Below are positions 6,137-29,819 of a stretch of DNA of 29,841 bases, in pieces. The position numbers and the translations under genes were made by a program. Origin of the DNA: Clostridia bacterium (GTDB lineage: Bacteria; Bacillota; Clostridia; Oscillospirales; Acutalibacteraceae); contig JAGAZW010000255.1 in NCBI GenBank assembly GCA_017939855.1, positions 1-29,841 on the forward strand, given 5' to 3'. Positions within the stretch are counted from its first letter, which is position 1. Each line of letters begins with the position of its first letter. The notes beneath the pieces are model-generated. The model worked only from the letters and a program-made list of their open reading frames with translations, did no database searches and had not been told where the DNA came from.

Positions 6137-6974
6137 GGGTTGGCTTATTGCGGCGGATGTAGACGGTACGTTAATGACAAATGGAGTAATACCGCAAAGA
6201 AACATTGAAAAAATAGAATGGTTTTTATCTGAGGGCGGATTTTTTTCACTCTCTACCGGAAGAACTCCGGGAGCTGTGGGCGACATCAGAGAGAAAATTA
6301 AAAATATATCACCGTCAATAATGGGCAACGGTGCAATGATATATGATTTCGAGAAAGATGAGCTTGTATATAATCGTTGCTTACCGCAGGAAGATAAAAT
6401 AGTCATAAAGACAATTTATGACGAATGTAGTGATCTGGGAATGGAAATCCATTCGGGAGTAAATGTTCTGGTTCCCAGAAGAAGCGAGGAAACAGATATT
6501 CACGAAAGCTATGAAAGTCTAGAGGTCTCTAATCCGTCTATGGAAAAGGCTATGGAATATCCTTGGACTAAGGTTTTGGTAGCTTTAAAAGATGAGAACG
6601 ATGCTCTGAGGGTAAAAGAAATAGTGTCACGCTTTGAGTTAAAATCAAGGTTTTTAAACACAACTGCGAGAATAGACGGTAAAGATTATCATTATTTAGA
6701 GCAGGTGTGCGAGGGAACATCAAAGGCATCGGCACTAAAAGAACTTTGCAAGATTCTCAATATAAAAAACGGGCGTTGTTGTGCTATAGGGGACTATTAT
6801 AACGATTTTGAAATGCTTTTGTCTGCCGATATTTCGGCGTCCCCCCTAGATGCACCCGACGATATAAAAGAAAAGGTTAATTTCATATGTTCAAAGGCTG
6901 AATACGGCGCAGTTGCCGATTTCATAGATTACATACAAGAGGCTATAAGAAAGGAAACAAAAAATGGACGCTAA
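6123..6974 (+). CDS. Cof-type HAD-IIB family hydrolase
   Basis: DVDGTL, STGR, SKASAL, AIGDYYNDFEML. Start placed at ATG 6123 (MKLFEG, after AAGGA) rather than the ORF-track start at 6039. Confidence 0.9.
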   Translation: MKLFEGWLIAADVDGTLMTNGVIPQRNIEKIEWFLSEGGFFSLSTGRTPGAVGDIREKIKNISPSIMGNGAMIYDFEKDELVYNRCLPQEDKIVIKTIYDECSDLGMEIHSGVNVLVPRRSEETDIHESYESLEVSNPSMEKAMEYPWTKVLVALKDENDALRVKEIVSRFELKSRFLNTTARIDGKDYHYLEQVCEGTSKASALKELCKILNIKNGRCCAIGDYYNDFEMLLSADISASPLDAPDDIKEKVNFICSKAEYGAVADFIDYIQEAIRKETKNGR

Positions 6975-7800
6975 TTTAAAGAAAGAACTTTCAAAACAGG
7001 CAGTAAAAGTCAGAATGGGCATAATCGATGCCGTGCATTCTGCAAAATCGGGACATCCGGGAGGCTCACTTTCGTGTGCAGATATATTGACATATCTATA
7101 CTTCGAAAAGATGAACATAGACCCTAAAAATCCTGATAAAGCAGACAGGGACAGATTTGTTTTATCAAAGGGTCACGCTTCCCCGGCTCTTTATTCTGTA
7201 CTCGCTAATCGAGGTTTTTTTGAGGTTGAGGAGCTTAAGAATTTCCGTCAGATAGGCTCAATGCTTCAAGGTCATCCCGACAAGAAAAAGGTACCGGGTG
7301 TCGATATGACAACTGGCTCTCTCGGTCAGGGAATATCTGCTGCAGTTGGAATGGCGCTATCGGCTAAACATTTTGGTGATGATTTCAAAGTTTATGCCGT
7401 TTTAGGTGACGGTGAGCTTGAAGAGGGTCAGGTATGGGAGGCAGCAATGTTTGCTGCAAACAAAGGACTTTCTAATTTGATTGCGTTTATTGATAACAAT
7501 AATCTTCAAATTGACGGAACTATTGATGAAGTAAACTCCGCAAAGCCAATAGATAAAAAATTCGAGGCTTTTAACTGGAAGGTAATATGCATCGACGGCA
7601 ATGACTTTGATCAAATAGAGGCTGCCGTTAATGAGGCTGAAAAATCAGATAAACCTGTTGCAATAGTTTGTAGCACGGTTAAAGGCAAAGGCGTTTCCTA
7701 TATGGAAAATGCAGTTAATTGGCACGGTTCAGCTCCAAATGATGAGTTGTATCAGGTTGCAATGGGTGAATTAAACGAAGCCCTTGCAAAATTAGCATAA
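6964..7800 (+). CDS. tkt: Transketolase, N-terminal (TPP-binding) subunit
   Basis: SGHPGGSLS, RDRFVLSKGHASPALY, LQGHP, TTGSLGQG, GDGELEEGQVWEA. Confidence 0.95.
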   Translation: MDANLKKELSKQAVKVRMGIIDAVHSAKSGHPGGSLSCADILTYLYFEKMNIDPKNPDKADRDRFVLSKGHASPALYSVLANRGFFEVEELKNFRQIGSMLQGHPDKKKVPGVDMTTGSLGQGISAAVGMALSAKHFGDDFKVYAVLGDGELEEGQVWEAAMFAANKGLSNLIAFIDNNNLQIDGTIDEVNSAKPIDKKFEAFNWKVICIDGNDFDQIEAAVNEAEKSDKPVAIVCSTVKGKGVSYMENAVNWHGSAPNDELYQVAMGELNEALAKLA

Positions 7801-7813
7801 GGAGGTTGCAAAA

Positions 7814-8761
7814 ATGGGAGAAGTTAAAACAGCGGCAACCAGAGCAAGTTTTGGTAAGGCTTTGGTACAGCTTGGAGAAAAAAGAAACGATTTTATAGTT
7901 ATGGATGCGGACCTTGCTGCAGCAACGCAGACAGGTATGTTCAAAAAGGCATTCCCCGAGAGATTTTATGACTGCGGAATAGCTGAGCAGAATATGATAA
8001 GTATTGCTGCAGGTATTGCCACAACCGGCAGAAAGGTGATAGTTTCATCTTTTGCTATGTTTGCTGCAGGAAGAGCGTTTGAACAAATAAGAAATTCCGT
8101 TGGATATCCAAACCTTAATGTTATTATCGGTGCTACACATGCGGGTATTTCTGTCGGCGAGGACGGTGCTACCCATCAGTGCTGTGAGGATATAGCCTTG
8201 ATGCGTACCATACCGGGTATGACTATTATTAATCCCGCTGATGAGACTGAAGCAATTAAAGCAGTTCATGCGGCTATGGAGGTAGACGGACCTGTTTATA
8301 TGCGCTTTGGAAGACTCGCAGTACCCTTCATATTTGACGAGGACTATGATTTTAAAATCGGTAAGGGCGTAGAGCTAAGAAATGGTGACGATGTGACCAT
8401 AATTGCAACCGGTCTTATGGTAAACGAAGCTTTACAGGCTCACGATATCCTAAAAGAACAGGGCATTTCTGCAAGAGTTATCAATATTGCTACCATTAAG
8501 CCTCTGGATGAGGAAATTGTCATAAAAGCAGCTAAGGAAACAGGCGCAATTGTTACTGCCGAAGAGCACACAGTTATAGGAGGCCTTGGTTCTGCAGTAG
8601 CTGATGTTGTTTGTGAAAACTGTCCTGTTCCGGTTATTAAATTGGGCGTTTATGATGTATACGGTCATTCAGGTCCCGCACCGAAGCTTCTTGATGAGTT
8701 TGGTCTTCGTGCAAAAGACATCGCTGAAAAGGCAAAGAAAGCATTAGAGCTTAAAAAGTAA
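7814..8761 (+). CDS. tkt: Transketolase, C-terminal (pyrimidine-binding) subunit
   Basis: DADLAAAT, CGIAEQNM, RAFEQIRNS, VGEDGATHQ, EEHTVIGGLGSAVA. Confidence 0.95.
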   Translation: MGEVKTAATRASFGKALVQLGEKRNDFIVMDADLAAATQTGMFKKAFPERFYDCGIAEQNMISIAAGIATTGRKVIVSSFAMFAAGRAFEQIRNSVGYPNLNVIIGATHAGISVGEDGATHQCCEDIALMRTIPGMTIINPADETEAIKAVHAAMEVDGPVYMRFGRLAVPFIFDEDYDFKIGKGVELRNGDDVTIIATGLMVNEALQAHDILKEQGISARVINIATIKPLDEEIVIKAAKETGAIVTAEEHTVIGGLGSAVADVVCENCPVPVIKLGVYDVYGHSGPAPKLLDEFGLRAKDIAEKAKKALELKK

Positions 8762-9255: not shown

Positions 9256-9290
9256 AACAAAGACCTCGGAGTTAATCCGAGGTCTTGTTT
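9256..9290. terminator. Terminator hairpin between the convergent XRE and CDF genes
   Basis: AAGACCTCGGA-GTTAA-TCCGAGGTCTT perfect 11-bp stem. Confidence 0.85.
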
Positions 9291-9291
9291 A

Positions 9292-10470
9292 TCAACTGGT
9301 AAAATCGTTGTCAAGGGTTATAACACAGCAGTAGGTTTCGTCTATGATATGGGCGAGGGTAGCGATTCTTTCCTTCAAATCGTCATCTGGTATGCTGAAA
9401 TCAGAGGGGACTACTACATCAAATATAAGGTTAGTGCGTCTGTCAGAATGCGGAGTCATACGAAAATCGTGTAGTGAAAGACGTTTATCTATAGTATGAA
9501 TGGCGTCGAGCATTTTCTGCTTTGTATTTTTTAAAACTTCGCTTTCATTGTCTATTGGGTCCATGTGGATAACAAGCATAATCCCCATTTTTTCCTGGAT
9601 AACCTTTTCACAGATGTCTATCTGTTCGTGACATTTAACAATATCGACGTTTTGCGGAACCTCGACGTGTACCGAAGCAAACTGTCTGCCTGGACCGTAG
9701 TTATGTACTATTAAATCGTGAATACCTATAAAATCCTCGAAGGCGAGAATGTTTTCTTGAAGCTGCTCTATAAACTCTTTTTCAGGCGGCTCCCCCAAAA
9801 TTTGATTAAGGGTATTTTTTGCAGAGGATAGCCCTGACCAAAGAATAAATACAGCTACCGCTATGGTCATAACTGCATCAAGATTAAAGGGGAGATTTGT
9901 AAGCGAAGTTATAAGTGCGGCAACGAGAATTGCGAAAGTAGATATACAGTCGTTCAAAGAATCCTGAGCAGTAGCAATTAAGGCGGCAGACTTGATTTTT
10001 CTGCCCAAGTATCTGTTAAATAAAAACATCCAGAATTTCAAAAAAATTGAAATTGCCAATACAACACCTGAGAAGATACTATATTTCGGTGAAGAGCTGC
10101 CGTCAATCAAAGAAGTTACAGCTTCTTTGATAAGTTCAAAGCCCACAAGCAGTATAAGCAAGGATACTATAAACGCCGAAATATACTCCATTCTGCCATG
10201 TCCAAACGGGTGATCCTTGTCAGCAGGTTTTGCTGCGAGTTTAAAGCCTAACATTGTAACCAAAGACGAACCCATATCGGTAAAGTTGTTGAGACCGTCG
10301 GCAATAATGGACATACTGTGTGTCAATGCTCCGGCAAACATTTTGATGATACAAAGAATGATATTTGTCGCAATTCCCACATAACCGCCCAGAGTTCCGT
10401 ATTTGTGCCGGACTGCTCCATCTGAACAATCATTGTTTTTAATGAACAATTTAATTAATAGTTTTGTCAT
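9292..10470 (-). CDS. Cation diffusion facilitator (CDF) family transporter, MntE-like
   Basis: SIIADGLNNFTD, KPADKDHPFGHGRMEY, DSLND, IHDLIVHNYGPG, ASVHVEV. Start placed at ATG 10470 (MTKLL, after AAAGGGAG), 1 nt after the ddl stop. Confidence 0.93.
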   Translation of the reverse strand: MTKLLIKLFIKNNDCSDGAVRHKYGTLGGYVGIATNIILCIIKMFAGALTHSMSIIADGLNNFTDMGSSLVTMLGFKLAAKPADKDHPFGHGRMEYISAFIVSLLILLVGFELIKEAVTSLIDGSSSPKYSIFSGVVLAISIFLKFWMFLFNRYLGRKIKSAALIATAQDSLNDCISTFAILVAALITSLTNLPFNLDAVMTIAVAVFILWSGLSSAKNTLNQILGEPPEKEFIEQLQENILAFEDFIGIHDLIVHNYGPGRQFASVHVEVPQNVDIVKCHEQIDICEKVIQEKMGIMLVIHMDPIDNESEVLKNTKQKMLDAIHTIDKRLSLHDFRMTPHSDRRTNLIFDVVVPSDFSIPDDDLKERIATLAHIIDETYCCVITLDNDFTS

Positions 10471-10471
10471 A

Positions 10472-11665
10472 TTAAAGCTTTGCTCCCTTTGAGCCTTTTG
10501 TGCCAAAGGAAACTCCCGAAAGAATATTTGTGTCGATAGTAAATGTCAAATTCTCACGGTTTCTTTGCCTTTTGAAAGCTATTTCGATAAGACGGTCTAT
10601 CATATCGGTGTACTTAAGGCCGGTTGCTTCCCAAAGGTAAAAAGCGAGGGAACCGGGAATGGTATTTATTTCGTTGGCATAGACCTTGCCTGTTTCGGTA
10701 TCTAAAAGAAAGTCAATTCTAACAACACCGCTGGAATTGGTAGCCTTGAAAATTTCACAAGCAAGTTCTCTTATTTCCTGCGCCTTTTCTTCTTCAAGGT
10801 CGGCGGGGATTTTTCTTTCTAGAGATGCCATACCCTTACTGGGAGCTTTTGATTTTCCACCCGACATATATTTATTTTCATAGGATAAAATTTCATCATT
10901 CATAAAGGGTTCTTCGCAAACACTTGCCTCACAGGAATCGGCGTCGCCTAAAACCGAGCAGTTGATTTCTCTTAGTGAGGTTATAGCTTTTTCGGCTAAA
11001 ACAACATCTGCAAAGGATACAGCAAGTGAGATTGCCTCGTCTAATTCTTCCTCGCTTTTGACCTTGCTTATTCCCACGCTAGAACCTAAGTTTACGGGTT
11101 TTATAATAAGGGGGAACCCTATTTTTCCTTTGATTTCGTCTATTGTCTCTTGCTTGTTGGTGCGATATTTACGAGAACGGAAACAAACACAGTCAAGCAC
11201 CGGAAGCCCATTGGCGTTAAGTACATCTTTAAAGACCTTTTTGTCCATACCGACTGCTGCAGAAAGTATATCACAGCTTATGTAGGGAAGACCCAAAAAC
11301 TCGAAGTATCCCGCCATCGTGCCGTCTTCACAGTTGGTGCCGTGAACGATAGGAAAGGCAATATCAATATTAATATCCTTTTTCTTGGAAAAAAGTCCGT
11401 TTTCGAGGTAGTGCATAGAAACACTGTCGCCGTCTTTAATCAGGGTTACCTTCTTCGAAACTTTTAAAAGCTTATCTAAATCGCTGTAGTTTTCTATTTC
11501 GAAAAGTTCGTCTGATGTATACATAGTCCCCGACTTATCTACATATATAGGTGTAACGTCATATTTTTCTCTGTTGATTGCCCTCATAGCCTGAACTGCC
11601 GAGATAATGGACACTTCATGCTCAACGCTGCGACAACCGTAGAAAACGGCAATATTTGTTTTCAT
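10472..11665 (-). CDS. ddl: D-alanine--D-alanine ligase
   Basis: GCRSVEHEVSIISA, HGTNCEDG, MDKKVFK, IKPVNLGSSVGISKV, SYENKY, RIDF, NEINTIPGS. Confidence 0.95.
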   Translation of the reverse strand: MKTNIAVFYGCRSVEHEVSIISAVQAMRAINREKYDVTPIYVDKSGTMYTSDELFEIENYSDLDKLLKVSKKVTLIKDGDSVSMHYLENGLFSKKKDINIDIAFPIVHGTNCEDGTMAGYFEFLGLPYISCDILSAAVGMDKKVFKDVLNANGLPVLDCVCFRSRKYRTNKQETIDEIKGKIGFPLIIKPVNLGSSVGISKVKSEEELDEAISLAVSFADVVLAEKAITSLREINCSVLGDADSCEASVCEEPFMNDEILSYENKYMSGGKSKAPSKGMASLERKIPADLEEEKAQEIRELACEIFKATNSSGVVRIDFLLDTETGKVYANEINTIPGSLAFYLWEATGLKYTDMIDRLIEIAFKRQRNRENLTFTIDTNILSGVSFGTKGSKGAKL

Positions 11666-11680
11666 AAAATCTTACCTTTC

Positions 11681-13255
11681 TTAATTAAGATAGTTATCGG
11701 GAAGGTCGTTTTCCAATAAAACGACACTTTTGTTTGTAATAAATTGCGAATAGATTTGCATAGCTTCAGCAAAACCGGCAGCGACAAAAACCTTATCTTT
11801 ATTAAAGTTTGTGGTATCAATAGCATCAAGCATAGGCTTTGCCCTGTTTTTGCCCACAAGAATAATTATATCACAATACTTTGTACATTCAAGTGCTAAC
11901 TGATAATTACACTCATACTCTTTATCACCGAGCTCAATAAGACCGGGTGTAATAACGGTTTTTTGCATACCGTCAAAGCAGCCCAGCACTCTTACCGCTT
12001 CAAGACAACCCACAGGGTTTGAGTTATACGCATCGTCAATAAGCAAGGAACCGTTTTTAAAGGGCTTCAGCTCAAGACGATGTTCAGTAGCTTTCAGTGC
12101 TGCTATTGCAAACTTAATATCGTCGGCCTTAACTCCTAACTTATATGCCATAGCCGCCGCCGCTACAATGTCTGCCACCGAGTGAAGACCTAGAAGTTTT
12201 GTGGTAACCTCTAAAACCTCTTCGTTAAGATAAAGTCGGAATTTCGAACCATCGGGTCCGTAACGGATATTTTGCGCTCGATAGTCAGTATCGTTCCCAA
12301 ATGGTATAAGGGTGTTGTCTGTCTTATCATATCTTGATAAAATATCGGGCGAATCATTGTTTATAAGCGTGAATCCGCCTTTTTTCTTTATAGCGTCTGC
12401 CAACTCAAACTTAGTTTCAAAAACATTGTCGACAGATTTAAACGTTTCAAGGTGTTGTGCACCTACAGAGGTTATAATACCGCAGTCGGGGTTCACTATA
12501 TCACATATTTCCTTGATGTCGCCTTTGTTTTTAGCGCCCATTTCACATATAAAAATTTGGGTTTTCGGTTTGATGCTTTCACGAATTGTTCTGACAACAC
12601 CCATCGGAGTGTTAAAGCTTTGGGGTGTGCAGACAGTATTGTATTTTTCACTTAAAATGCGGTTAAGTATAAATTTGGTTGTTGTTTTACCAAAGCTTCC
12701 GGTAATGCCTATAACTTTTAAATTTGTATGATTTTTAAGTATCCTTTTGGCATCGCTGATATAATAAAAACCGAAGGCTTTTTCTAAAGGATAGGTAATA
12801 ATCCAAGAAATGAGCATTAAAGCGGGGGAAATAAAGGATAGTGCAAGGCAGCTTATCTTCATTATTTCTCCCAAAAGGGTGTTTTGGGTAAAGAAGAAAA
12901 CGGTAATTAAAGCGGCGATTATTATAATTGCTGCGGCATAAAGCCTTTTGATACGGGAAGTAAAGACTAAAGGCTTAATCGATTTTTTTTGCGTGTTAAG
13001 ACATCGGAAAATTCTGATTATGAGAATAAACGCTGAAATTATGGTAGCGATAAGAGCCTTGTTTGCCGAAATAAGCACCGAGCAAAGACAAAAAAGGCAG
13101 GAACAAAAGCAAAGCTCAATAACATAGGAATTGTTCATCCATTTATAGTATCTGCTAGGGTAATATGAATTTTGTTGAAGCATCTGAAACTGTCGGGTAA
13201 CGGAAAATATTCCGGATAGCGCCATTAAAATCAGACAGATAAGTATATATACCAA
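11681..13255 (-). CDS. murF: UDP-MurNAc-tripeptide--D-Ala-D-Ala ligase (MurF) with a multi-pass hydrophobic N-terminal region
   Basis: P-loop ITGSFGKTTTK, SFNTPMGV, CEMGA, HLETF, HRLE, IDDAYNSNP, TPGLIELG; first ~155 aa are strongly hydrophobic. Confidence 0.88.
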   Translation of the reverse strand: MVYILICLILMALSGIFSVTRQFQMLQQNSYYPSRYYKWMNNSYVIELCFCSCLFCLCSVLISANKALIATIISAFILIIRIFRCLNTQKKSIKPLVFTSRIKRLYAAAIIIIAALITVFFFTQNTLLGEIMKISCLALSFISPALMLISWIITYPLEKAFGFYYISDAKRILKNHTNLKVIGITGSFGKTTTKFILNRILSEKYNTVCTPQSFNTPMGVVRTIRESIKPKTQIFICEMGAKNKGDIKEICDIVNPDCGIITSVGAQHLETFKSVDNVFETKFELADAIKKKGGFTLINNDSPDILSRYDKTDNTLIPFGNDTDYRAQNIRYGPDGSKFRLYLNEEVLEVTTKLLGLHSVADIVAAAAMAYKLGVKADDIKFAIAALKATEHRLELKPFKNGSLLIDDAYNSNPVGCLEAVRVLGCFDGMQKTVITPGLIELGDKEYECNYQLALECTKYCDIIILVGKNRAKPMLDAIDTTNFNKDKVFVAAGFAEAMQIYSQFITNKSVVLLENDLPDNYLN

Positions 13256-14083: not shown

Positions 14084-14137
14084 AATGTTGCCTGAAAAAA
14101 GAAGTCTTTTTTTAAATAAATGTAAATATTATATTAG

Positions 14138-14166
14138 TTGCAAAATGGGTGAAAATGTGGTAATAT
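14138..14166 (+). promoter_or_regulatory. Putative sigma-A promoter for the murI operon
   Basis: TTGCAA, 17 nt, TAATAT, with TG in the extended -10 position. Confidence 0.5.
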
Positions 14167-14205: not shown

Positions 14206-15024
14206 ATGGCAGACAGTAGGGCAATCGGGATATTCGATTCGGGTCTTGGCGGACTTACGGTTGCAAAGGAAATTATGAAACTGTTACCGAATGAAAACAT
14301 AGTTTATTTCGGTGATACAGGCAGAGTGCCTTACGGTACCAGAAGTGCCGCTACTATACAAAAATATGCAAGTGAGGACGAAAGATTTCTTCTTTCAAAG
14401 GACGTTAAACTTATAGTGGCTGCTTGTGGTACAGTGTCATCTGTAGCGGCAAATACCGCAAAAGATTTGCCCGTCCCTTTTATTGAAGTTATTTCTCATT
14501 CGGTTGATGCAGCGGTTAAAAACACCAAAAATAATAAAATCGGAATCCTTGCTACAGCCGCTACAATAAGAAGCGGTGCTCATAAAAGGATGATTATGGA
14601 AAGACTGCCCGGAGCACAGGTGGTCGAAAGTAGCGGAACGCTCTTAGTGCCTTTGGTTGAGGAAGGCTGGACAGATAAAGAAGACAGTGTTGTTTTGCAA
14701 ACGGTGCAGCGATATGTAGAAGAGATGAAAAGGGTGGGTGTAGATACCGTTATCATGGGTTGCACACATTTTCCTGTTTTAGCAGAGGCCATCTCTGAGG
14801 TTATGGGTCAGGATGTGTTTCTTGTTAATATGGGTGTTGCCACAGCAAATGCGGTAAGACGGCTTTTGGAAGAAACCGATGCTTTAAACGAAGGGCTGTC
14901 ACACGCAGACCATAAATTTTTTGTCAGTGACCGTACTGCTGCGTTTGAAAGTACGGCGTCAGTGTTGCTGGGCGAAAAAATAGACAATTTCATTGTTGAG
15001 CAGGTGGATATAAACAAGCTATGA
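14206..15024 (+). CDS. murI: Glutamate racemase
   Basis: IGIFDSGLGGLTV, YFGDTGRVPYGTRS, ACGTVSS (first Cys), MGCTHFP (second Cys). Confidence 0.95.
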   Translation: MADSRAIGIFDSGLGGLTVAKEIMKLLPNENIVYFGDTGRVPYGTRSAATIQKYASEDERFLLSKDVKLIVAACGTVSSVAANTAKDLPVPFIEVISHSVDAAVKNTKNNKIGILATAATIRSGAHKRMIMERLPGAQVVESSGTLLVPLVEEGWTDKEDSVVLQTVQRYVEEMKRVGVDTVIMGCTHFPVLAEAISEVMGQDVFLVNMGVATANAVRRLLEETDALNEGLSHADHKFFVSDRTAAFESTASVLLGEKIDNFIVEQVDINKL

Positions 15025-26879: not shown

Positions 26880-28070
26880 TTAGTCGGTCATATTATCGAA
26901 GTAACCCTGAACAAGTATAACAGGTGTTCCCTTATCGCCCGAGCCGCTTGTGAGGTCGCATAGCGAACCTATAAGGTCGGTGAGTCTTCTGGGGGTAGTT
27001 CCCTGAGACGCCATATTGCCCACAAGGTCACTGCCCTTTTCCTTGATAGCGTTTTCGATAGCCTCCTTGAGCTCTTCACCCTTAAGGTCAGCAAAATCGT
27101 TATCTGCAAGATATTTGAGCTTGAGCTCGTTTGGCGTACCCTCTAAGCCCTTAGTGTAGGCGGGGGAAACAACAGGGTCTGCCAACTCCCAAATTTTACC
27201 AACAGGATCCTTAAAGGCACCGTCACCATACACCATAACCTCAATATTCCTGCCCGAACGCTTCAAAAAGCTCTCTTGAATGGTGTTTACAAGGTCAAAG
27301 CAGTCCTGAGGGAATAGCTTTACGGTGTTTTCGGTGGATTTATTGGAGCCCAACAAACCGTATTTTGAGTTAAAACCGCTACCGGATATGGATTCGTTTA
27401 GTATCTCGTCGAGACCTACAACACGTTTTGCACCTGCTGCACGTAAAATACGCTTTGTACGTGCACGGGAATGGATATCGCAGTTTAATACATTGTCGGT
27501 GTAATTGAGGATAACTCTCGGGTCATTAGCTAAAATAATTTCAGCTTCTGCGCCGCAGGAACGGATAAGGTCACCATAATATTTGATGTAGTCAACACCT
27601 GTGAACGGATGAGGATTTTCACCGAACAATTCACGATATTTTGCTTCGGTCAATATATCTGAATAGGGGTTAATACCTGCTTCGTCTAACTGATCAAGGG
27701 AAACCAAAGCGTTACCCACTTCGTCACTGGGGTAGTTAAGCATAAGCACTATCTTTTTGGCGCCCATAGCTATGCCACGTAGACAAATAGCAAAACGATT
27801 TCGGCTTAAAATGGGGAATATAACACCTATAGTCTCGCCGCCGAGCTTTGTCTTAACGTCTTGAGCAATTGCATCAACCGACGCATAATTTCCCTGAGCA
27901 CGTGCAACAACAGATTCTGTTACTGCTACTACATCACGGTCACGAAGCTCAAAGCCTTCGTACTCTGCCGCTTCTATAACGCTGTCAACAACAATAGCAG
28001 CGATGTCGTCTCCCTCACGGATAATAGGGCATCTGATGCCACGAGATATTGTACCTACTTTTCTTGCCAT
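26880..28070 (-). CDS. CofE-like (coenzyme F420-0:gamma-glutamyl ligase family) protein, enlarged, true substrate unknown
   Basis: GIRCPIIREGDDIA, DRDVVAVTESVVARAQG, GLLGSN...KLFPQD, LTDLIGSLCDLTSGSGDKGTPVILVQG match CofE blocks; GGAGG RBS. Confidence 0.82.
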   Translation of the reverse strand: MARKVGTISRGIRCPIIREGDDIAAIVVDSVIEAAEYEGFELRDRDVVAVTESVVARAQGNYASVDAIAQDVKTKLGGETIGVIFPILSRNRFAICLRGIAMGAKKIVLMLNYPSDEVGNALVSLDQLDEAGINPYSDILTEAKYRELFGENPHPFTGVDYIKYYGDLIRSCGAEAEIILANDPRVILNYTDNVLNCDIHSRARTKRILRAAGAKRVVGLDEILNESISGSGFNSKYGLLGSNKSTENTVKLFPQDCFDLVNTIQESFLKRSGRNIEVMVYGDGAFKDPVGKIWELADPVVSPAYTKGLEGTPNELKLKYLADNDFADLKGEELKEAIENAIKEKGSDLVGNMASQGTTPRRLTDLIGSLCDLTSGSGDKGTPVILVQGYFDNMTD

Positions 28071-29096: not shown

Positions 29097-29819
29097 TTAT
29101 TTGAGCACGATGTTCCCGCAAATTTCAATCAAAAAATCTCCTTTTTTGAGAAGCTTTGCAAGATCAAAGGAGTCGGATGGCAGATATTTGCTCCTTATTG
29201 CCGCAAGTCCTTCGTGGTTCTTGTGCGGATGATGAAAATCAGAACCTGCAGTTATAATTGAAAGATTATTTTGTTTTGCCCAATCTGCGACCTGTCCTAT
29301 TCTTGAATTGTGACCGGGATGCATATTGAAAACTTCGACACCGTCTAAAATTTCAGGATCAACCTTTTCTATGCCGTCTCTCAGGGGGTGTGCCTGGAGA
29401 AAAATGCTGTGTGGCAACGAATAATTATTTCTGAAGTTTTCAACCCCAAAGGGAAGAAAATCATAAATTTCCTCAAGCATTTTTCGGCTTATTCCGAAAA
29501 CGAGGTACTCATTACGATTTTCCTCAAAGCATATTTCTGCGCCCAGATAAACCTTAACTCCAATCGCCTTTCCGAATTTTTCAGTTTCCTCAAAGTCTTT
29601 CAAAAAGAAGTCAATATATTCTTCTTTTGTCAGTTTGCTATGATTGTGAGAAAAATGATTTGTCACAGCTACAGCATGAAATCCGAGTCTTTTATAGGTT
29701 TTGACTATTTCTCTGGGTGAAATTTCGCTACATCTACTAGCAGGACTTGTATGGGCATCAAGCTCTATTTTGTATTTATAGTCGTGGCATAAAGTATCTT
29801 TAATTTCTTGTAAATTCAT
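29097..29819 (-). CDS. PHP domain-containing protein (metal-dependent phosphoesterase family)
   Basis: YKIELDAHTS, VAVTNH, LGAEI, QAHP, EVFN, GSDFH: the PHP motif order. Confidence 0.88.
   Translation of the reverse strand: MNLQEIKDTLCHDYKYKIELDAHTSPASRCSEISPREIVKTYKRLGFHAVAVTNHFSHNHSKLTKEEYIDFFLKDFEETEKFGKAIGVKVYLGAEICFEENRNEYLVFGISRKMLEEIYDFLPFGVENFRNNYSLPHSIFLQAHPLRDGIEKVDPEILDGVEVFNMHPGHNSRIGQVADWAKQNNLSIITAGSDFHHPHKNHEGLAAIRSKYLPSDSFDLAKLLKKGDFLIEICGNIVLK

Follow-up and report, generated by a model that had tools for sequence, protein, structure and literature searches.

What becomes of MurF when the domain that holds the uridine moiety of its substrate gives way to membrane helices? 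MurF is an essential and long-pursued antibiotic target, soluble in the textbook model organisms. The question is raised by an open reading frame (ORF) in a stretch of 29,841 nucleotides from a Clostridia bacterium of the Acutalibacteraceae (assembly GCA_017939855.1, contig JAGAZW010000255.1, positions 1 to 29,841; the whole of this stretch is hereafter called the window). The stretch belongs to a 1.27-Mb metagenome-assembled genome (MAG) that is 88.65% complete and whose closest named relatives are MAGs of Acutalibacteraceae/Ruminococcaceae. Our analysis shows a protein whose role is ordinary, that is, the housekeeping D-Ala-D-Ala step, and whose architecture is unusual. The best explanation overall, to which we assign a probability of roughly 0.7, is that this protein is the housekeeping MurF in a membrane-embedded ('Helicobacter-type') form. 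The core of this claim, namely that it is a membrane-embedded, main-pathway enzyme adding D-Ala-D-Ala, we regard as highly probable from the sequence evidence set out below.

The identity of the enzyme follows from its ligase part. When compared with the NCBIfam models, the protein matched murF best (TIGR01143, 222.6 bits), against 67.3 bits for murD, 66.6 for murC, 54.9 for murE and 28.1 for MurT. In a sequence search of the PDB the seven best of ten matches were MurF (E 2e-33 to 1e-26), and the top 10 chains found by Foldseek were all MurF (E 1e-19 to 2e-24), with 353-364 columns aligned to the MurF structures 4QF5, 4QDI and 1GG4. By sequence and by fold, the nearest solved proteins are the soluble MurF enzymes of E. 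coli, S. pneumoniae, A. baumannii, T. maritima and P. aeruginosa (1GG4, 2AM1, 3ZL8, 4QF5/4QDI and 4CVK-4CVM), which share the core fold at 24-28% identity. The central domain carries a P-loop (G186-S-x-G189-K190-T191) together with E238, H268 and K282, the last of which aligns with K202 of E. coli MurF (1GG4). In an alignment of 33 diverse homologues (34-74% identity), which underlies all conservation values given here, G186, S187, G189 and K190 are invariant and T191 is nearly so; the P-loop as a whole, E238, H268, K282, R393, DDxYNxNP and the ELG motif are likewise invariant or nearly invariant. The DDxYNxNP and ELG motifs also line up with E. coli MurF, and PF02875 matched the C-terminal domain at 27.7 bits, marginally under its cut-off of 28.4. 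Judged by these motifs, the central and C-terminal domains are of the MurF type and have kept the ATP, Mg and dipeptide-site motifs.

Phylogeny places the protein in the same way. In a tree of the catalytic part, the membrane type (24 rows, support 99) is sister to the soluble MurF of the same class (22 rows, support 98), and both MurF clades are split from MurE by a long branch with support 100. Two Poribacteria rows of the first tree, which were in fact the neighbouring MurE proteins, were disregarded.

We then asked what had become of the N-terminal part. The TIGR01143 match covers profile positions 67-401 of 418 and starts only at ligase residue 172, and the alignment with E. coli MurF begins at E. 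coli residue 97. The absence of the uridine-binding domain (domain 1), which the earlier note had proposed, is thus borne out by profile positions 1-66, which remain unmatched. Because both alignments start past domain 1, residues 1-155 replace exactly this domain, rather than being helices merely added in front of it. Hydropathy analysis of this region (Kyte-Doolittle, 19-residue window) gave five peaks above 2.0, at residues 1-19, 45-63, 68-86, 105-123 and 131-154; the maximum for residues 170-524 is 1.29. AlphaFold2 models, which rest on alignments of 33-35 homologues, reached a pLDDT of 90.5 for the whole ligase protein and 96.9 for residues 1-176 alone, with helices at 2-28, 33-43 (interfacial), 45-63, 67-91, 100-122 and 127-141/143-175. 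The last of these leaves the membrane and continues into the first strand and the P-loop of the ligase core. The protein had been described in the earlier note as an integral membrane protein with four to five helices: hydropathy, models and charge pattern all uphold its membrane nature, and the count becomes five helices plus an interfacial one.

The distribution of basic residues orients the domain. The mean number of lysines plus arginines is 4.0 in loop 1, 7.2 in loop 3 and 4.5 in the stretch after the fifth transmembrane helix (TM5), against 0.1 at the N-terminus, 0.6 in loop 2 and 0.4 in loop 4. This positive-inside pattern therefore predicts that the N-terminus is on the outside and that the ligase domains are cytoplasmic, as they must be in an ATP-dependent enzyme. 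As an integral membrane protein that lacks the uridine-binding domain, the enzyme must work at the inner face of the membrane, which upholds the earlier proposal that it acts at the membrane.

A wrong start codon or a gene-fusion artefact was considered as the origin of this architecture and excluded, since thousands of full-length homologues span residues 1-524; the junction helix, confidently modelled by AlphaFold2, likewise speaks against a fusion artefact. An AGGA sits 10 nucleotides 5′ of the start codon, and the start of a homologue with 74% identity coincides with that of the window ORF.

The membrane domain itself has no familiar relatives. Residues 1-176 matched no Pfam family at E≤1, and comparison of the membrane domain with 48,161 PDB representatives gave no convincing fold match (best Z 5.7, in the noise of helical bundles). 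CDP-alcohol phosphotransferases, at Z 4.6-5.4, were dismissed as a candidate fold as they lie within this noise. Among 1.8 billion representative proteins, the domain was found only as the N-terminal part of MurF-like proteins of about 520-540 amino acids, or as short fragments and stand-alone pieces.

Five genomes of 0.8-1.0 Mb from a single family (f56: G104, G134, G161, G188 and G214) all have a membrane-type MurF; in four of them the frames are only 474-489 amino acids long and match the family profile from position 53-87, so that these shorter forms may have fewer helices.

Conservation within the N-terminal region is concentrated in its cytoplasmic loops. In loop 1, Q27 and Y31 are invariant and R35 and Y36 nearly so; in loop 3, T99, R101 and R104 are invariant; in the linker, P156 and E158 are nearly invariant. 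All invariant residues of the region lie on the cytoplasmic side. Furthermore, conservation reaches 0.56 in loop 1 and 0.63 in loop 3, the most conserved part of the whole N-terminal region, compared with 0.55-0.59 for the catalytic core and 0.26-0.34 for the helices. Such a pattern is consistent with a polar binding site on the surface of the membrane, carried by a variable scaffold, and argues against a mere tether. As to the ligand, it would be compatible with the diphosphate end of a UDP-linked substrate, an undecaprenyl-diphosphate end or a partner protein.

To decide whether this is the enzyme of the main pathway, we looked at the rest of the genome and at its relatives. The window genome encodes MurC, MurD, MurE and MraY; on its PBP-murE-mraY fragment murE adjoins mraY, with no murF between them. 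The earlier note had raised the possibility of a soluble MurF elsewhere in the genome: none was found in the MAG at its completeness of 88.65%, and a search of the same genome for the canonical MurF domain 1 gave a sole match, inside MurE, and no stand-alone copy. Within the genus, the best MurF match is of the membrane type in 37 of 41 genomes, of which 36 have it as their sole MurF match, and two genomes have a soluble MurF. We extended the comparison to a sample of 201 genomes from the class, almost all of them 90% complete or better. Against the family profile, the MurF of 30 genomes scores at least 443 bits and is of the membrane type, and that of about 166 reaches no more than 263 bits and is of the soluble type; no second MurF match was found among the 30 carriers. 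In this sample the two forms are thus mutually exclusive, and the occurrence of the membrane type within families is patchy. A rare co-occurrence is seen in one congener (G056), where the membrane type is accompanied by a weaker MurF-like frame of 515 amino acids (contig C23:38138-39310; profile positions 26-413, 201 bits, below the cut-off).

Named carriers come from several phyla. In Bacillota they include Acutalibacteraceae, Lachnospiraceae, Butyrivibrio, Gracilibacillus, Pseudalkalibacillus, Haloplasma and Tissierellaceae; in Bacteroidota, Muribaculaceae, Cyclobacteriaceae and other members; further carriers are Poribacteria and one gammaproteobacterium (Endothiovibrio). Cultured isolates with the membrane type only are Gracilibacillus massiliensis, Butyrivibrio sp. 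FCS014 and Pseudalkalibacillus sp. R45. Two Poribacteria have their genes arranged as (PBP-)murE-hydrolase-TM-murF-ddl-mraY-murD, so that a trio of hydrolase, membrane-type MurF and Ddl genes occupies the murF slot of the dcw cluster. Being mutually exclusive with soluble MurF and the sole MurF-type protein found in its genome, the window protein is therefore the housekeeping MurF of the main pathway rather than a side enzyme. The salvage role that had been suggested for it is disfavoured by the same two observations.

Two congeners, G003 and G008, provide a natural replacement experiment. Both carry a soluble ddl-murF cassette (351 and 456 amino acids) elsewhere in the genome, and at the syntenic site, upstream of the same CDF transporter, only a membrane-domain ORF is left, the ligase part and ddl being gone. 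The hydrolase, which two other congeners have at 70-73% identity, was found in neither genome. This swap implies that the trio is functionally equivalent to soluble Ddl and MurF, that only the membrane form depends on the hydrolase, and that the membrane domain alone is largely dispensable. The two leftover ORFs share 42% identity, against 82-94% for the flanking genes, and their dN of 0.55, against 0.04-0.12 for the neighbours, corresponds to an evolution 5-10 times faster. They retain Q27, Y31 and R101, and T99, R104 or E158 is lost in one or the other. Their divergence looks like decay after loss of the ligase. In one of them, what follows TM5 looks similar to the basic C-terminus of the missing Ddl, pointing to an internal deletion.

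The genomic company of the ligase gene points to the same step (Table 1). The adjoining D-Ala-D-Ala ligase is the only Ddl found in a search of the window genome and passes the subfamily cut-offs (NF002528, 323.5 bits against 262; TIGR01205, 273.7 against 245.65). A vancomycin-type D-Ala-D-Lac or D-Ala-D-Ser module was excluded on these grounds, and also because the Ddl scores far under every Van ligase cut-off. On the other side lies a serine hydrolase whose triad (S95, D208 and H236) is invariant in 70 of 70 orthologues, which also share a conserved GSxDY cap motif. Among the NCBIfam models it is matched best by that of the EstV family lipase, whose name comes from H. pylori EstV, at 119.7 bits, below the cut-off of 300. 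In H. pylori, the genes next to murF (HP0740) are, we presume, ddlA (HP0738) and estV (HP0739). Of 80 named loci, 65 have the hydrolase gene immediately before the ligase gene in the same orientation, and 58, from several phyla, show the full same-strand order of hydrolase, membrane MurF and long Ddl. The median gaps in this module are 12 and 15 nucleotides. From this arrangement the ligase gene is predicted to be co-transcribed with the only Ddl gene and with a catalytically intact serine hydrolase. We found no longer fusions, either hydrolase-MurF or MurF-Ddl, which is weak evidence.

Table 1 Features of the membrane-type MurF locus, in window positions (last row: positions in two congener loci)
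Feature	Position	Strand	Details
Membrane-type MurF ligase ORF	11681-13255	minus	524 amino acids, TTG start codon
Membrane domain, residues 1-155	12791..13255	minus	five transmembrane helices and one interfacial helix, predicted N-terminus out
Cytoplasmic loop 1 motif HMLQQNSY...RY, residues 21-36	13148..13195	minus	alignment of 33 homologues
Cytoplasmic loop 3 motif KKxKKPLVxTxRVKRL, residues 90-104	12944..12988	minus	alignment of 33 homologues
Linker helix, residues 156-176	12728..12790	minus	TM5 extension into ligase core; helix 143-175 in both models
Central ATP-binding Mur ligase domain, residues 184-370	12146..12706	minus	PF08245, E 3.2e-36
C-terminal Mur ligase domain, residues 392-514	11714..12082	minus	R393, DDxYNxNP and TPGxxELG motifs
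C-terminal tail motif ENDLPD, residues 515-520	11696..11713	minus	N516-D517-L518-P519 invariant
Alpha/beta serine hydrolase, 255 amino acids	13272..14039	minus	PF00561; 16 nucleotides upstream of ligase gene
D-Ala-D-Ala ligase (Ddl), 397 amino acids, long DdlA-type	10472..11665	minus	15 nucleotides downstream of ligase gene
Promoter-like site TTTTCA, 16-nucleotide spacer, TATAAT	14128..14155	minus	upstream of hydrolase; consensus scan only
Asp/Glu racemase-family gene, divergent	14206..15024	plus	PF01177
Stand-alone membrane-domain ORFs of congeners	L023:3949-4485; L024:4029-4691	minus; plus	178 and 220 amino acids

From these elements we propose the following course of the reaction. The ligase would take D-Ala-D-Ala from the adjacent Ddl and, with ATP, add it to the tripeptide stem on the cytoplasmic face of the membrane, and the pentapeptide precursor would be made beside MraY. 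The helices would act as a scaffold only, with the ligase core facing the cytoplasm on a rigid linker helix. The cytoplasmic loops (through Q27, Y31, R35, Y36, T99, R101 and R104) and the linker would stand in for domain 1 by holding the diphosphate end of the acceptor, and the hydrolase would serve some step specific to the membrane form of MurF. The ENDLPD tail, in which pLDDT is low from residue 519 and before which the alignments with E. coli and S. pneumoniae MurF end, may act as a peptide on which a partner docks. That the loops bind UDP-MurNAc-tripeptide has, in our estimate, an even chance. The acceptor is probably still UDP-MurNAc-tripeptide rather than a lipid-linked tripeptide: an unchanged, UDP-linked product is favoured because soluble and membrane forms interchange among close relatives, an argument to which their interchange within one genus lends mild weight.

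Several points weigh against this proposal. The score of the full-length protein, 222.6 bits, lies below the TIGR01143 cut-off of 288.6, a shortfall explained by the lack of a counterpart to profile positions 1-66 and common to every membrane-type relative. The completeness of the MAG leaves room for a second MurF in the missing part of the genome. A substrate-binding role is ascribed to the loops from conservation only, and we found no enzymology of any membrane-type member in the literature. The UDP-linked acceptor is an assumption, since the uridine-binding domain of every solved MurF is absent here. Moreover, the hydrolase has no place in the textbook MurF reaction and hints at a differing chemistry; together with the absent uridine pocket, it provides the main argument for such a difference.

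These last two points lead to the alternative that survives best, which we nevertheless consider unlikely: the same essential enzyme would act after MraY, on the tripeptide form of lipid I or lipid II, and the textbook pathway would be reordered, as the earlier note had suggested. MraY would then move phospho-MurNAc-tripeptide to undecaprenyl phosphate, and the membrane domain would hold the undecaprenyl-diphosphate end. A polytopic membrane domain standing in for the uridine-binding one would suit such a substrate, as would invariant Arg, Thr, Tyr and Gln residues at the interface of membrane and cytosol, which are expected for the head group of a diphosphate lipid, and an extra, obligatory hydrolase suggests chemistry outside the textbook. 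On the other hand, a basic interfacial site would suit UDP-diphosphate equally well, the helices are poorly conserved and show no conserved intramembrane groove, and the murE-mraY neighbourhood of the window genome is otherwise ordinary. The free swapping of the two forms among close relatives is also easiest to understand if both deliver UDP-MurNAc-pentapeptide.

The idea of a lipid substrate draws on an analogy with MurT. MurT, together with GatD, is the lipid II isoglutaminyl synthase, which works at the membrane on a lipid-linked precursor, and it is the other Mur-fold enzyme without domain 1 (6GS2, 6H5E and 9SQ9). The likeness does not extend much further. The MurT model NF045635 gives the window protein 28.1 bits against a cut-off of 800, and in the fold search MurT structures come out well behind those of MurF (E about 1e-15 against 1e-24). 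Furthermore, MurT is soluble, has GatD as its partner, and amidates instead of adding a dipeptide.

Next in order comes the explanation, improbable in our view, that the membrane domain is a tether or scaffold that places MurF by MraY and the elongation machinery. The central and C-terminal domains alone would hold UDP-MurNAc-tripeptide, and the loops would bind the hydrolase, Ddl and MraY. The model for this is H. pylori MurF (HP0740, a gene of 1485 bp), which three papers describe as an essential inner-membrane protein with four N-terminal transmembrane domains that co-purifies with the membrane proteins Csd5 and Csd7 (PMC9448923, PMC9507126, PMC6501431; the statement on four helices is that of Blair et al. 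2018, as cited in PMC9448923). In the H. pylori work the helices are treated as an interaction site for cell-shape proteins and not as a substitute for a substrate-binding domain. The helices of the family do evolve fast, like a simple anchor, and G003 and G008 have kept an open membrane-domain ORF after losing the ligase. However, these leftovers bear the marks of decay described above, loop conservation equals that of the active site, and a tether leaves unexplained why domain 1 is deleted in every member.

The comparison with H. pylori also bears on the preferred reading, that of a housekeeping MurF embedded in the membrane. Here the likeness rests on published description and not on sequence, which counts against it. 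H. pylori MurF lies in size between the soluble type and the window protein, which is 30 amino acids longer and has five helices plus the interfacial one. Atlas look-alikes of the window membrane domain include a Campylobacterota cluster. A membrane-embedded MurF is thus already known as a kind through the H. pylori reports, yet uncharacterised, and the window adds one member. Our search of the literature on membrane-bound, membrane-anchored or atypical MurF found no paper on this family, nor any account of its missing domain 1, its loops or its link to the hydrolase, and a search on EstV/HP0739 and the HP0738-HP0740 neighbourhood found nothing useful.

The weakest alternative, an accessory Mur-type ligase (for teichoic acid, capsule, or recycling and salvage) with the true MurF in an unassembled part of the genome, could appeal to the score under the murF cut-off, the incomplete MAG and the second frame of G056, but is made very improbable by the mutual exclusivity of the two types in about 200 genomes at least 90% complete, complete isolate genomes with the membrane type only, the trio in the dcw murF slot of Poribacteria and the soluble ddl-murF pair that has taken its place in G003 and G008.

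Compared with soluble MurF, then, the membrane-type protein keeps the P-loop, E238, H268, K282, DDxYNxNP and the ELG motif, its gene lies by ddl or in the murF slot of the dcw cluster, and it apparently performs the same essential step. It differs in having a five-helix membrane domain with conserved cytoplasmic loops instead of domain 1, whose uridine-ribose pocket is used by soluble MurF and its inhibitors (PMC11569785), in its obligatory hydrolase partner, in its conserved ENDLPD tail and in forming a separate clade. Another non-standard architecture is that of the MurF′-Alr chimeras of Bacteroidota (PMC13726279), which differ from the window protein in keeping domain 1 (profile positions 1-418), in being fused to an alanine racemase and in having no membrane domain. 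A Muribaculaceae MAG (G060, the source of locus L049) has a frame of this MurF′-alanine racemase type (C25:50893-52167; 833 amino acids, murF positions 1-418, 249.9 bits) alongside its membrane-type MurF, and no MurF above the cut-off was found in this genome. In such Bacteroidota the working MurF may be the membrane type.

Around the module, the divergent racemase-family gene is probably the glutamate racemase gene murI. Downstream of ddl lies a CDF cation-efflux gene (9292-10506, minus strand), which also flanks the remnant of the module in G003 and G008. As its longest frame runs 35 nucleotides into the end of ddl, the true start probably lies further in. A promoter-like site lies within the 3′ end of ddl (10521-10549), and a strong terminator-like hairpin follows the CDF gene (9260-9286). 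Further along, transketolase is encoded in two subunit genes, N-terminal and C-terminal (6964-7800 and 7814-8761, plus strand), a split that is common in Clostridia. Two ORFs on the minus strand, 26880-28070 (396 amino acids) and 29097-29819 (240 amino acids), have no NCBIfam match at E≤1e-15, and around 27-28 kb of the window the GC content rises to 0.44-0.45 and the GC skew becomes negative.

The finding matters for the many bacteria in which the form without the uridine-binding domain is the only MurF, that is, many gut Clostridia, some Bacteroidota and Bacilli and, reportedly, H. pylori. Annotation or pathway models that require a match at the level of TIGR01143 would label such genomes as lacking MurF. 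The best-known MurF inhibitors, which occupy the uridine-ribose pocket (PMC11569785), should find no site on the membrane form, and its membrane domain and loops represent an alternative, lineage-selective drug site. If the lipid-linked reading were true, the D-Ala-D-Ala step would come after MraY in about 15% of the sampled class, as well as in members of Bacteroidota, Bacilli and Poribacteria, in Endothiovibrio and probably in Helicobacter, and the serine hydrolase that is always linked to this enzyme would perform a step of the reordered pathway.

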